Below, piece after piece: positions 96 through 3,974 of a stretch of DNA of 4,059 nt. The number at the start of each line of letters is the position of its first letter. The first letter of the stretch is position 1. Both the position numbers and the translations under genes were made by a program. The notes under the pieces are model-generated. The model worked only from the letters and a program-made list of their open reading frames with translations. It had not been told where the DNA came from and did not search any database. The DNA is from a virus (Duplodnaviria; Heunggongvirae; Uroviricota; Caudoviricetes), in IMG/VR virus record IMGVR_UViG_2671180770_000009, one strand, 5' to 3'.

Positions 96-172
96 TGTAG
101 ATTGATCCAGTAATTCCCTCAGAATTGCATATCAATTTGCTTAGAGTCCCCGGCGGCCACCGGGGATTTTTT
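96..172 (+). ncRNA. oop: OOP-like antisense small RNA, antisense to the 3' end of cII
   Basis: Plus-strand segment gtagattgatccagtaat...ctcagaa resembles the lambda oop RNA as I recall it, and ends in a GC-rich hairpin plus T-run inside the cII 3' coding end. Position and antisense orientation relative to cII and O match lambda oop. The 5' end is estimated from the putative -10. Confidence 0.55.
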
Positions 173-415
173 CTTTGTGATTTCATCAAGCGCATACTTA
201 AAAGCCCTGCTAATCGGACTGATGTCTGATGCCATTCCGAAAGCACACAAGACCGAAGCAATAAATCTCCAGTCCGTTCTGCTTATCTTCGATTCATGAC
301 AGCCAATCATCTTTGCCAGACCGCGCTGGGTAAGCGTTGACAGGTTGATGAGTAAATCAGTTTCAGCGCGATCAATTTCTCGCTGTGATAGTTTGCTGTA
401 ACTTGTTTGTTCCAT
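119..415 (-). CDS. cII: CII-like transcriptional activator (lysogeny establishment)
   Basis: 98-aa ORF. C-terminal KKKSPVAAGDSKQIDMQF closely parallels the lambda CII C-terminus KKRPAATERSEQIQMEF as I recall it, and length is similar to lambda CII (97 aa). Gene order cro-cII-O is conserved, and the region upstream of the ATG (ggaaatcttaagaaATG) resembles the lambda cII translation initiation region. Confidence 0.85.
   Translation of the reverse strand: MEQTSYSKLSQREIDRAETDLLINLSTLTQRGLAKMIGCHESKISRTDWRFIASVLCAFGMASDISPISRAFKYALDEITKKKSPVAAGDSKQIDMQF
147..175 (+). terminator. Rho-independent terminator of the oop-like RNA
   Basis: Stem tccccgg (147..153) / ccgggga (160..166), 6-nt loop, followed by TTTTTTCTTT (167..176). 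The T-run is on the plus strand only, so it does not terminate cII transcription. Confidence 0.6.
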
Positions 416-553: not shown

Positions 554-787
554 TTATGCAGCCGATGCTCTACGCGATACGAACACTAGGTTTTCCTTTT
601 TCACAGGTTTATAACCCGTGAAATTACGAGTAGCTTCTTCGATTGCATTCGCTTTATCAGGGGAAGCTCTTCGAAATCCATATGCAATCTGGTCAAGATA
701 GCCAACTGAAGTTTTCGCTAATGCGGCGAGTCGCTTCCATTCCTCACTAGAAGCCTCTTTTCGCCAGCGTAGTAGTTCATTACTCAT
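554..787 (-). CDS. cro: Cro-like HTH DNA-binding regulator
   Basis: 77-aa ORF transcribed divergently from the CI-like gene, with a GGAGG Shine-Dalgarno (complement of 793..797) 5 nt before the ATG. A helix-turn-helix-like segment (LAALAKTSVGYLDQIAYG) is present. No similarity to lambda or P22 Cro that I can recall, so the call rests on position and HTH. Confidence 0.7.
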   Translation of the reverse strand: MSNELLRWRKEASSEEWKRLAALAKTSVGYLDQIAYGFRRASPDKANAIEEATRNFTGYKPVKKENLVFVSRRASAA

Positions 788-900: not shown

Positions 901-1605
901 ATGGAAAACAAAGATATTCGCAAATCGAATCTGGCGTTTTTGCTAGATGAGCATAAAAAAATCGCGGGTAACACTAATGCAAGCTTTGCCGATAAGCTTG
1001 GGGTTAGCCCTTCTCAACTCACGCAAGTCTCCGGTGAAAAAAGCACTCGAAACATAGGGGATAAACTAGCAAGAAAATTTGAAGCCGCGCTTGGGTTACC
1101 TAATGGGTGGCTTGATTTGGTACATGATGTAACACCAATTGCATCATGCTCAGATTCTTTAACTTTTGTCGGTCAGGTAAGAAAAGGGTTAGTGCGCGTG
1201 GTTGGTGAGGCAATTCTTGGTGTTGATGGTGCCATCGAGATGACCGAAGAGCGCGATGGGTGGCTCAAAATTTATAGCGATGATCCAGATGCCTTTGGTC
1301 TTCGTGTGAAAGGAGACAGCATGTGGCCCAGAATAAAATCAGGAGAATATGTACTCATTGAGCCTAACACCAAAGTATTCCCGGGTGATGAGGTGTTTGT
1401 CAGAACCGTTGAAGGACACAACATGATTAAGGTTCTTGGCTATGACAGAGATGGAGAATACCAATTTACAAGCATTAACCAGGATCACAGGCCTATAACG
1501 TTGCCTTATCATCAAGTAGCAAAGGTGGAGTATGTAGCTGGTATTCTGAAGCAATCTCGCCATCTGGATGACATCGAGGCAAGGGAGTGGCTGAAAAGTT
1601 CGTGA
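901..1605 (+). CDS. cI: CI-like prophage repressor (N-terminal HTH_XRE domain, C-terminal S24/LexA-type peptidase domain)
   Basis: 234-aa ORF. N-terminal HTH (NASFADKLGVSPSQLTQV). The C-terminal domain carries the S24 catalytic serine motif GDSM (Ser139) and a downstream lysine (MIKVLG, Lys177), and FGLRVKGDSM aligns with LexA FLLRVSGMSM. Divergent from cro with operators between. Confidence 0.9.
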   Translation: MENKDIRKSNLAFLLDEHKKIAGNTNASFADKLGVSPSQLTQVSGEKSTRNIGDKLARKFEAALGLPNGWLDLVHDVTPIASCSDSLTFVGQVRKGLVRVVGEAILGVDGAIEMTEERDGWLKIYSDDPDAFGLRVKGDSMWPRIKSGEYVLIEPNTKVFPGDEVFVRTVEGHNMIKVLGYDRDGEYQFTSINQDHRPITLPYHQVAKVEYVAGILKQSRHLDDIEAREWLKSS

Positions 1606-1665: not shown

Positions 1666-2007
1666 ATGGCGTTCACTGACCTTGAATATCAAGCGGTCAA
1701 AAAAGAAGTTCACCAATTCATTGAAAGCATAAGGCCGCCTGAACATATCCGCAATGAACTGGATATTGTTTATAGCATCAATGACCAAACGATAGATATC
1801 GGCGAACAGCGCCCCGTGTGGCAGGGCAACCCAGGTGAAACAAACATCCTGCCATCAGCAAGAATCAAGTACATACGTTCTCTGGATAGATGGAAAATCT
1901 ATTGGATGCGGAAGGATATGAAATGGCATCAGTACAGTACTGAACTTTCGCTGACTGATGCGCTTGAGCTTGTGCGTGCTGACCCGGATTGCTGCTTCTT
2001 CGGATGA
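1666..2007 (+). CDS. DUF3024-like small protein (function unknown), first gene of the accessory cassette
   Basis: 113-aa ORF with a strong Shine-Dalgarno GAGGAGG (1653..1659) 6 nt before the ATG. It contains a WKIYW motif and a C-terminal CCFFG; from memory this matches Pfam DUF3024 (conserved WKI motif), which needs an HMM search to confirm. No terminator between the cI stop (1605) and this gene. Confidence 0.8.
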   Translation: MAFTDLEYQAVKKEVHQFIESIRPPEHIRNELDIVYSINDQTIDIGEQRPVWQGNPGETNILPSARIKYIRSLDRWKIYWMRKDMKWHQYSTELSLTDALELVRADPDCCFFG

Positions 2008-2077
2008 GTGAAGAGACGTTTGGATGATGGATGATCGCAGAGATGCTCGTAGAGCATACAGCGATGCAGGAGAATTT

Positions 2078-2512
2078 ATGGCACTTAATTTAGAAAGAAT
2101 ATCTTTTATAACCCCATTTGATAGCAGCGAAGAACCCAACCAACCGACGCTTAATTTTACATGCAATGAATTTCCTGCGCGGCTATCAATTGATTTCAGG
2201 GTTGGTATGATCGGGTTGAAACCAAATTCAAGATATAATTTGGGTATTATGGTAATCCCCGCGCACCTAATTATAAAAAAAGGTGAGGAAATTCAATTCC
2301 CTGACGGCTCTTCGGAATCAGTTTCACTTTTCATCGATACGAAAGATAGCCATTTTGAAACAGGGGTTGGCGGACAGGTAATAGTAACATTGAAAGAAAT
2401 TAGGGTCCCAGCTAAAGGGCTGTATAGTGTTATAGGGATATTGCAAGATAATGAAGACCCTAAAAATGAACTTCATAAAAATGAATCATTTTTCACCGTA
2501 GAGCTATTATGA
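2078..2512 (+). CDS. Hypothetical protein (about 144 aa, no recognisable domain), accessory cassette gene 2
   Basis: Open frame 2024..2512. Preferred start is ATG 2078 because AGGAG (2068..2072) sits 5 nt upstream; the ATG doublet at 2024/2027 has only a weak SD. Visibly AT-richer than the flanking phage core genes. Predicted soluble, no obvious TM segment. Its stop TGA overlaps the next ATG (ATGA at 2509..2512). Confidence 0.65.
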   Translation: MALNLERISFITPFDSSEEPNQPTLNFTCNEFPARLSIDFRVGMIGLKPNSRYNLGIMVIPAHLIIKKGEEIQFPDGSSESVSLFIDTKDSHFETGVGGQVIVTLKEIRVPAKGLYSVIGILQDNEDPKNELHKNESFFTVELL

Positions 2513-2661
2513 GTGACGACAGTAATTTAAATAATCATGGAAAGCAAGACGCCAACATATCTGAAAGCCGGAGGTTGAAGGTTGTTGGCGGTTCCGATTT
2601 TGAGGCTGAATTTGATAATTCTCCCACCAAGGTGCAAAATAATTACATAAAACCGCCATAA
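2509..2661 (+). CDS. Small hydrophilic ORF (50 aa), translationally coupled to the upstream gene
   Basis: ATG 2509 overlaps the upstream stop as ATGA. It translates as MSDDSNLNNHGKQDANISESRRLKVVGGSDFEAEFDNSPTKVQNNYIKPP and stops at TAA 2659..2661, 12 nt before the next gene's start. Not in the ORF track, presumably because of a length cutoff. No independent SD, so coding status is uncertain. Confidence 0.35.
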   Translation: MSDDSNLNNHGKQDANISESRRLKVVGGSDFEAEFDNSPTKVQNNYIKPP

Positions 2662-2673
2662 ACGGAGGAAGAA

Positions 2674-3129
2674 GTGGGAACGATCAGCAGAGAGGAACTT
2701 GATGCTCGCTTAGCTGCTAATAAAGCAGAGATGGAGTCTATTGCTTCTTCCATTAGGGCTGACATGGCTCTATCTCGTGAAAGCGTTAATGTCCAATTTG
2801 CATCACTTAATGCAGCCATAAGCTCTCTATCGTCCAAGATCGATGGAAAGATGGATAGCGCTGCTGGCGATATAAAAGCAATTAATGGGAGATTCGAAGG
2901 AATTCAAGGACAAATAACAGGGGTTAATACCGCAATTAGTGGTGTTCAGTCGGGTATTTCTATACGATTAGCCATTTTTAGTGTCATTATCGCTGTAATA
3001 GTTGCGATTCCCGGGCTGGTATCAGCTTTAAAGTCAGACCACGCACCTTTGCAACAGCCTTCCACTTTGCAAGCGCCGCCACAAAATACCCAGCCAACAG
3101 ACAACAAAAAAATCACTCCCCAGCATTAA
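2674..3129 (+). CDS. Tail-anchored coiled-coil membrane protein (single C-terminal TM helix, Pro/Gln-rich tail), accessory cassette gene 4
   Basis: 151-aa ORF from GTG 2674 (the first start codon after the in-frame stop at 2659..2661), with a strong SD GGAGG (2664..2668) 5 nt upstream. N-terminal about 95 aa are Ala/Ser/Ile-rich with a heptad-like pattern. A hydrophobic helix RLAIFSVIIAVIVAIPGLVSAL (about nt 2965..3030) is followed by a polar tail PLQQPSTLQAPPQNTQPTDNKKITPQH. Followed by an intrinsic terminator. Confidence 0.75.
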   Translation: MGTISREELDARLAANKAEMESIASSIRADMALSRESVNVQFASLNAAISSLSSKIDGKMDSAAGDIKAINGRFEGIQGQITGVNTAISGVQSGISIRLAIFSVIIAVIVAIPGLVSALKSDHAPLQQPSTLQAPPQNTQPTDNKKITPQH

Positions 3130-3137
3130 CGCATTAA

Positions 3138-3163
3138 CCCGGCCTCAGCGCCGGGTTTTCTTT
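3138..3163 (+). terminator. Rho-independent terminator ending the cI-cassette operon (t_imm analogue)
   Basis: Stem cccggc (3138..3143) / gccggg (3150..3155), 6-nt loop ctcagc, followed by TTTTCTTT (3156..3163), 9 nt after the stop of the membrane-protein gene. Confidence 0.7.
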
Positions 3164-3339
3164 GCCTCACGATCCCCACACCTAAAAACACATAACCAAT
3201 TGTATTTGTTGAAAAATAAATAGATACAACTTGCTAAACAACGCAATCCAGATCTCCCTCAAATCTCTTTATTTATCCTGTCGAATTCCTACAACAAAAT
3301 AAAACACCATAAGAATCAATACGATATTTGAAAACCAAG

Positions 3340-3395
3340 AGAATTTATCATTTTGCTATTGCCATTAATTTATCATTCCGATAAAGCTCACCCAT
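3340..3395 (+). promoter_or_regulatory. OL/pL-like operator-promoter region
   Basis: Perfect 17-bp palindrome TTTATCATTCCGATAAA (3369..3385) and related site TTTATCATTTTGCTATT (3344..3360) share the TTTATC half-site with the OR sites. Candidate pL: -35 TTGCCA (3359..3364) with -10 GATAAA/ATAAAG (3380..3386) at 15-16 bp spacing, overlapped by the palindrome. About 65-70 nt upstream of the nutL boxB, as expected for pL. Confidence 0.4.
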
Positions 3396-3455
3396 CAGCA
3401 GGACGCACTACTCACCAGGGCGGTGAATATACAACGATTCGAATATGAATCTACG

Positions 3456-3635: not shown

Positions 3636-3974
3636 ATGACACGCAGAACTCAGTTCAAAGGCAATTCACGTTCTCGTCGTCGTGAGCGTTTAAAGGTAAA
3701 GGCATTAGCTAACGGCGTACTGGCCCGCGAAGAAGCAATAAGTTCAGAAGTATTACACCGCCCTACTCTAAGCAGAGCGCAGATTCAGGCTAAAGGTACT
3801 CACGAAACGCCTGAGCGTATAGAAGACGCTAAGCCAATTAAGTTCATGGCACAGGACGTGATCTGGCAACAGAAAGAATACAGACGCAATCTGGAGCGAG
3901 CGGCCATTGTGTACGCGAATGAGTTTGGACATAAGCAACCAGAAACTGGTGTATGTCTTGGCTTTGTTGAATAA
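3636..3974 (+). CDS. N: N-like transcription antitermination protein (arginine-rich motif)
   Basis: 112-aa ORF with SD AGGAGG (3625..3630) 5 nt before the ATG. N-terminal arginine-rich motif TRRTQFKGNSRSRRRERLK resembles the P22 gp24 ARM (GNAKTRRHERRRK, from memory). Position downstream of OL/pL/nutL on the cI strand matches lambda N. Confidence 0.75.
   Translation: MTRRTQFKGNSRSRRRERLKVKALANGVLAREEAISSEVLHRPTLSRAQIQAKGTHETPERIEDAKPIKFMAQDVIWQQKEYRRNLERAAIVYANEFGHKQPETGVCLGFVE

Follow-up and report, generated by a model that had tools for sequence, protein, structure and literature searches.

A gene pair at the rexAB position of prophage repressor operons and its possible role in superinfection exclusion

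The repressor operon of a lambdoid prophage raised the question of whether an AT-rich open reading frame within it, which had been flagged as an orphan of ambiguous start with no recognizable domain, is a genuine gene and, if it is, what function it may serve. The window (that is, the whole stretch of 4,059 nucleotides that was analysed, taken from IMG/VR record IMGVR_UViG_2671180770_000009) is the immunity region of a lambdoid (Stx-phage-like) Escherichia coli prophage, the features of which are listed in Table 1. The frame in question, denoted here as gene A, is followed directly by a second gene, denoted B. A scan of the + strand from cI to position 3136 found no terminator-like site, and a promoter scan returned none before A and one weak + strand match inside B (2612-2640), with a count of matches not above that of shuffled sequences. 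We infer that A and B are transcribed with cI in the repressor unit. At the terminator that closes this unit, the alignment with lambda and HK244 regains identity; the HK244 annotation names Timm at this site, and the DNA 3' of the window's terminator is the same as that of the lambda Timm region.

Two further observations concern the window as a whole. A scan with Rfam over its entire length returned nothing credible. The gene at the cro position lacks a Pfam match and has a weak PHROG match only (phrog_35, E=4e-7); it is annotated by PGAP as a hypothetical protein in strain 2013C-3342.

Table 1. Features of the window, numbered from its first nucleotide
Feature	Position	Strand	Product	Remarks
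cII	119-415	-		
cro-like gene	554-787	-	77 aa	
cI-type repressor gene	901-1605	+	HTH + Peptidase_S24	Pfam, PHROG; Opens the operon in which A lies
DUF3024 gene	1666-2007	+	PADLOC candidate PDC-S43	Pfam E=2e-31; PADLOC E=7e-42
In-frame extension upstream of A (ATG 2024/2027)	2024-2077	+		Open in the E. coli variants read; not conserved
Shine-Dalgarno AGGAG	2068-2072	+		Five bases 5' of ATG 2078; read from the sequence
Gene A	2078-2512	+	144 aa	Stop codon 2510-2512; concluded extent of the flagged gene
Gene B (phrog_5820)	2509-3129	+	206 aa in relatives	Start overlaps the stop of A (ATGA); interrupted in the window
Premature stop TAA in B	2659-2661	+		CAA (Gln51) in relatives; C-to-T relative to L001 and L002
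Possible restart ORF of B (GTG 2674)	2674-3129	+	151 aa	SD-like GGAGG at 2664-2668; putatively expressed
Intrinsic terminator closing the repressor operon	3136-3157, T-tract to 3167	+		Terminator scan; equals Timm of lambda/HK244
N antiterminator gene	3636-3974	+		

Extent, family and predicted fold of gene A

The open frame extends on the + strand from 2024 to 2512 (162 codons) and opens with two ATG codons, at 2024 and 2027. Both this doublet and the AGGAG motif ahead of ATG 2078, each of which had been pointed out in the original prediction, are present in the sequence. The GC content of A is 0.375 when counted from 2078 (0.384 from 2024), compared to 0.43-0.47 for cII, cro, cI, DUF3024, B and N, and A is hence, as had been proposed, the most AT-rich gene in the window, within which the intergenic stretch 3200-3400 alone exceeds it in AT content.

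Homologues that are 63-79% identical to A, from Enterobacter, Citrobacter and metagenomes, are 143-144 aa in length and align from Met19 of the long open frame; the 18-codon extension is missing in all of them. In two loci (L007 and L008), in-frame stop codons occur 4-5 codons 5' of the initiating Met of A, while in a third (L003) the sequence 5' of its start is unrelated, and in E. coli LS45 the stop codon of a different repressor overlaps the ATGATG stretch. The 144-aa form is annotated both by PGAP (strain LS45) and in GenBank (HK244, HK542); RefSeq holds the two forms side by side, with the 162-aa form found in, for example, strain 2013C-3342. Given the lengths of the homologues, the upstream stops and unrelated sequence, the overlap in LS45 and the 144-aa annotations, we conclude that A starts at ATG 2078, the start that had already been preferred for its better Shine-Dalgarno motif and a product of about 144 aa. 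The 18-codon extension would then be an artefact of longest-ORF calling that most likely lies outside the translated part of A, and annotations beginning at 2024 are to be corrected to 2078.

Comparison of A with the homologues of 63-79% identity gave pS values of 0.77-0.88, which are near saturation, together with pN values of 0.10-0.25; for three diverged alleles, the values are 0.77-0.84 and 0.10-0.22, respectively. Conservation of the frame and purifying selection had been named earlier as the means by which the gene should be judged, and both were found: the frame is open in the homologues of 63-79% identity and pN is far below pS, consistent with a gene under purifying selection. The notion that A is a chance open frame in AT-rich DNA would draw on its base composition and its lack of a domain match. 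It is already refuted by the conservation of the homologues, in which frame and length are kept across 25-79% identity, and by the excess of pS over pN; the confident prediction of a fold for the protein, described below, also argues against it. As judged by these comparisons, A is a genuine, conserved and uncharacterised gene, and the first of a two-gene cassette.

No family of Pfam, NCBIfam or PADLOC was matched by A, in keeping with the earlier failure to recognize a domain. With PADLOC-DB 2.0.0, A and five of its relatives gave no credible match, a single match at E=0.013 being returned for one relative. The description of A as an orphan could not be sustained. It is a full-length match to phrog_5893 (E=3.3e-50), with residues 21-161 of the 162-aa ORF aligned to positions 1-136 of the 140 in the profile, and this family, with its sister phrog_5881, is found in several genera of the Enterobacterales. 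All 26 aligned relatives match phrog_5893 and 19 of the 26 match phrog_5881; both entries are of unknown function and thus name the family of A without explaining it. The protein encoded in the window is 100% identical to those of phages HK244 and HK542 (HK24405, ABO40680, and AFH20417), and a search of the accessible literature found no paper mentioning HK24405 or HK24404, their protein accessions or the PHROG identifiers.

When 1.84 billion representative proteins were searched with the A profile, 31 matches were obtained at E<=1e-3; some 17 of the proteins matched are small (140-153 aa) and align over their full length. The sources of the family are prophages of E. coli, Enterobacter, Citrobacter, Klebsiella, Phytobacter and Photorhabdus. 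A is present in 51 of 5426 complete E. coli genomes and in 32 IMG/VR contigs, in addition to HK244 and HK542; a profile scan of genome contigs with a narrow alignment of A confirmed no loci. phrog_5893 is a small family of Enterobacterales prophages.

The 144-aa product of A is soluble and cytosolic, with neither a signal peptide nor a transmembrane (TM) segment. Modelling with AlphaFold2, based on an alignment of 26 sequences, produced a model built of eight strands without any helix (mean pLDDT 85.8, pTM 0.80), which bears out the earlier impression, gained from the alternation of hydrophobic and polar stretches, that the protein is beta-rich. The predicted fold is an all-beta sandwich of two sheets that can be superposed on Ig-like domains. 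It appears to be a generic Ig-like sandwich, of the same class as adhesin repeat domains, the Ig-like domains of GH2 enzymes, arrestin/Spo0M-like proteins and Pycsar AGS-C, and as such the model gives no clue to a ligand. Sequence searches of the PDB with the A profile, as with B, returned matches at chance level only.

The long proteins matched by the A profile are giant He_PIG/Big_9/PKD Ig-repeat proteins, a likeness at the level of sequence to bacterial Ig-like repeats; in P0010 (4194 aa), matches to the A-family profile occur in 22 stretches of approximately 46 aa (E=1e-41). The identity of A as an adhesin fragment was considered and ruled out, the matches in long proteins being short (approximately 46 aa), located in repeated Ig domains (He_PIG, Big_9) and indicative of a likeness at the level of fold only.

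Gene B and its interruption in the window

The region 3' of A had been read as two separate entities, at 2509-2661 and 2674-3129. Alignment to the intact E. coli loci L001 and L002 revealed that the two ORFs are instead one gene of 206 codons broken by a nonsense codon. The profile of phrog_5820 (length 200) agrees with this assignment, its start matching the 50-aa ORF and its remainder the 151-aa ORF, and the annotation of the window is to be corrected such that its two downstream ORFs become one broken gene. When this stretch of B was compared with 51 complete E. coli genomes, none matched at 100% and the best at 99.7%, and hence the nonsense codon is seen in none of them. In all other loci B is open wherever the contig allows, with the exception of L049 and L050.

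Read from its N- to its C-terminus, intact B is composed of an N-terminal region of approximately 55 aa, a "SREELDARLAANKAE" (SREEL) helix, heptads in which every seventh residue is Gly, a hydrophobic segment and a tail. The hydrophobic segment, situated near the C-terminus, is the single strongly hydrophobic one of the protein, and beyond it lies a tail of 5-43 residues rich in Pro, Gln and Ala; the B proteins of Photorhabdus, L014 and L055 have just 5-7 residues past the TM segment. With this layout, B is a tail-anchored protein of the inner membrane, the long coiled coil of which presumably lies in the cytoplasm. As for the window, a product restarted at GTG 2674 could be made, in which the coiled coil and TM segment would be retained and the variable N-terminal region would be lost. 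The A-B module of the window is thus probably either inactive or left with an N-terminally truncated B that would be unable to bind A.

Searches of Pfam, NCBIfam and PADLOC with B and its relatives returned nothing other than coiled-coil noise (PADLOC E of approximately 5e-5 to 0.05). Among the PHROGs, B matches phrog_5820, of unknown function, together with weak coiled-coil matches, none of which is annotated as superinfection exclusion.

Some variation in the length of B was also observed. The number of Gly heptads in the coiled coil varies among lineages; two Citrobacter B proteins (L003 6429-6998 and L004 6232-6765; 189 and 177 aa, respectively) differ in the (Ala-Pro)n repeat of the tail and are otherwise identical; and in Photorhabdus B is shortened to 108-175 aa.

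Pairing of A with B and exchange of partners

A B-type gene is located directly 3' of A in every locus examined (approximately 55), including those of relatives that are just 25-35% identical, and in most of these loci the stop codon of A and the start codon of B overlap as ATGA; the pair is probably translationally coupled. The original prediction had spoken of a cassette and had proposed pull-downs of A with the DUF3024-like and membrane proteins. The membrane protein gene is present at every locus, whereas DUF3024 occurs in approximately 15 of 46 A-carrying loci, in the company of several repressor types, and a three-gene cassette of DUF3024, A and B was ruled out by its absence from about two thirds of the loci. 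As B is present in all loci and DUF3024 is facultative, the conserved unit is composed of A and B. In phage 933W, the neighbours of DUF3024 appear to be cI on one side and a RuvC-like gene with stk on the other (ST933Wp22-25 in locus-tag order; PMC10789677).

Searches based on B recovered more families than those based on A. B proteins from prophages of Enterobacter, Yersinia and Pectobacterium share 45-67% identity with E. coli B over their C-terminal two thirds, and their N-terminal 55-95 aa are replaced together with the abutting upstream gene. The alternative upstream partners are a 120-aa CxxC...CxxC protein (Enterobacter) and two proteins of 97 and 99 aa; the A profile matches none of the three. 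Klebsiella oxytoca presents a more graded divergence, with A 31% identical, the N-terminus of B 21% and the rest of B 61%. The simplest reading of these alignments is that the small partner and the N-terminus of B would constitute a cognate, exchangeable unit mounted on a constant core of coiled coil and membrane anchor. Since the N-terminus of B changes along with each partner, the comparison suggests that A may be a swappable specificity subunit, with contact between A and B deduced from their co-replacement in a few lineages. We infer, again from few lineages, that such a layout would be that of a membrane effector held in common and fitted with a variable sensor or adaptor.

A broader proposal can be made from the same alignments, one that we consider possible and rather doubtful. 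It holds that A-B would be one variant of an undescribed class of modular repressor-operon systems in Enterobacterales prophages, in which a phrog_5820 core is combined with at least four sequence-unlike cytosolic partners, each with its own docking N-terminus, to form a plug-and-play sensor/effector exclusion system in the rexAB slot.

Loci in which the B core is combined with alternative partners include L056 (4639-5621), L058/L059 (4695-5699) and L060 (4683-5780). At three of the four loci read, B with its alternative partner follows the repressor; in L058 it adjoins a DinI gene instead.

Position in the repressor operon and possible function

With the exception of the Photorhabdus lineage and two short contigs, A-B is found directly 3' of the prophage repressor gene and on the same strand. 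At least ten length classes of repressor precede it, comprising both S24-type and short HTH-type proteins, and by this distribution the pair moves as a cassette among prophages of many immunity types. The genomes of HK244 and HK542, reportedly deposited by Degnan et al. in 2007, are instructive in that both have lambda immunity: their DNA is nearly identical to that of lambda up to and including cI and becomes so again at Timm, and A-B stands exactly where lambda has rexA-rexB. On the basis of these alignments, A-B is an allelic alternative to rexAB.

Given this position, together with the apparent modularity of the pair, the reading we favour, albeit tentatively and at a probability of roughly 0.45, is that A-B is a superinfection-exclusion or abortive-infection pair, Rex-like and yet non-homologous to Rex, in which A would confer specificity as an exchangeable subunit and B would act in the membrane as effector or anchor. 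The pair would be expressed in the lysogen from the repressor operon. A, which could be a sensor-type component in line with the sensor or effector role suggested earlier, would be docked on B through the variable N-terminus of the latter and would recognize a cue from an incoming phage. The coiled-coil/TM part of B, as the common effector or anchor, would then either block entry of the genome at the inner membrane or perturb the membrane once released.

RexAB was the first abortive-infection system to be described and was found in the cI-N interval; T4 rII is among the phages that it excludes, by membrane depolarisation, and its mechanism is not settled. Lambda rexAB occupies exactly the position of A-B, in the repressor transcription unit that runs from cI to Timm, and likewise consists of a gene for a soluble protein followed by one for a membrane protein. 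The likeness does not extend to sequence or architecture. Alignment of RexA with the 26-sequence profile of A by hhalign gave a probability of 0.5% (E=0.12), and BLASTP of RexB against B produced no alignment at E<=100. RexA has 279 aa, compared to the predicted Ig-like sandwich of 144 aa that is A, while RexB, a polytopic membrane protein of 144 aa, differs from B with its one C-terminal TM segment and coiled coil. The operon and slot shared with rexAB would also be compatible with A-B modulating the lysis-lysogeny switch or prophage induction, as has been reported for lambda RexA, independently of exclusion; a preprint reports that RexA and RexB assist the transition to lytic growth (bioRxiv 10.1101/2021.04.19.439022). 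We regard this as very unlikely: A is unlike RexA, with the hhalign probability of 0.5% noted above, and has no nucleic-acid-binding features, and the at least ten length classes of repressor alongside the pair argue against a repressor-specific partner.

Other cargo is also found directly 3' of repressor genes, presumably sharing their promoters, as with BstA, stk of 933W and DUF3024/PDC-S43. None of these is homologous to A-B, and BstA and Stk are single proteins with recognizable domains, whereas A-B is a pair without a recognizable catalytic or DNA-binding domain. HK97 gp15, T4 Imm and P22 SieA are small superinfection-exclusion proteins of the inner membrane that act singly. They resemble B in being encoded by phages or prophages, anchored in the membrane and found at moron positions; B differs in having a soluble partner gene at every locus. 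Neither A nor B has homology to characterised defence proteins as searched with PADLOC 2.0.0, Pfam, NCBIfam and PDB sequences. Two further systems that were considered, HepS (PMC13043305) and Tai (PMC11364771), are unrelated to A-B.

Repressor operons also carry lysogenic-conversion genes that are unrelated to defence and consequently, the rex-slot position is circumstantial as evidence for exclusion. A-B might instead be a conversion factor acting on the host envelope, with a role in stress tolerance, remodelling of the surface or periplasm, or colonisation. Its position in the repressor operon, and thus expression in the lysogen, would suit this role, as would its occurrence mainly in gut and pathogenic Enterobacterales and the Pro/Gln/Ala-rich tail of B, which is predicted to be periplasmic and is variable in repeat number. 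However, this tail is missing from B of Photorhabdus, L014 and L055 and hence is not the conserved part of the protein, and the swapping of unrelated cytosolic partners resembles a change of specificity more than a housekeeping role in the envelope. A function of this kind is therefore judged to be unlikely.

The Photorhabdus lineage presents a counterpoint to the proposal of exclusion, as its A-B pairs (L012/L013 6001-6952; L051/L052 6001-6751) are located inside contractile-tail/baseplate clusters with no repressor adjoining. This location would favour an accessory protein of the virion or tail (for example an Ig-like factor for decoration or assembly) that lies near cI by chance in lambdoid phages, and Ig-like domains are indeed common on phage structural proteins. 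Nevertheless, a virion role is considered highly improbable: the lambdoid pair belongs to the repressor transcription unit, 5' of Timm, and this unit is expressed in lysogeny rather than late, its partner B is predicted to be membrane-anchored, and tail-gene clusters are also known sites of moron insertion, as exemplified by HK97 gp15. In L012 and L013, the cluster containing A-B adjoins a T6SS locus.

Returning to exclusion by a membrane effector, disruptions of B were found in five of the 51 A-carrying complete genomes of E. coli, namely three IS1 insertions and two in-frame deletions of residues 13-113. In one of the two such loci read, IS1 is inserted within B (L050 1501-2610) and in the other the deletion is present (L049 1476-1790); A is intact in both. 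These disruptions, together with the nonsense codon of the window, would fit a costly membrane effector and could also represent ordinary prophage decay. That they are found in B, and not in A, would also be in accord with a toxin-antitoxin (TA)-like pair for addiction or stabilisation, in which B would be a membrane-active toxin and A its upstream neutraliser, with any defence as an optional side-effect. The arrangement of a small upstream gene with a 4-nt overlap with its downstream neighbour, and the joint replacement of A and the N-terminus of B, as for a cognate binding pair, are likewise consistent with such a proposal. Against it, the all-beta Ig-like sandwich predicted for A is neither a DNA-binding nor a known antitoxin fold, no TA or PADLOC family was matched and, to our knowledge, tail-anchored coiled-coil proteins of 160-260 aa do not constitute a known class of toxins. 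Of the features that characterize type II systems, neither a DNA-binding antitoxin (HTH, RHH or AbrB) nor a known toxin family was found, the overlapping two-gene layout being the only one that fits. An addiction pair thus seems improbable to us; as many TA pairs work as abortive-infection systems, this explanation overlaps with that of an exclusion pair.

Should A-B prove to be an exclusion module, it would represent a non-homologous allelic alternative to RexAB and would add a system that is undetected by PADLOC 2.0.0. The coupling of a soluble sensor to a membrane effector would then become testable in a new and simpler system. The pair is small (144 + 206 aa) and genetically tractable, and the natural partner-swap variants point to A and the first approximately 55 residues of B as the determinant of specificity.

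Mosaic diversity is reported to have a hotspot in the cI-N interval, where two abortive-infection systems, RexAB and BstA, are located (PMC8585504, citing Degnan et al. 2007). Phages BP-4795 and AU5Stx1 have the cI allele of the window (98.5-98.6% DNA identity) and other cargo between cI and N: in BP-4795 (L062 1942-3283, ORF22-20) there are three unrelated ORFs, and in AU5Stx1 (L063 1806-2694) the slot is almost empty.
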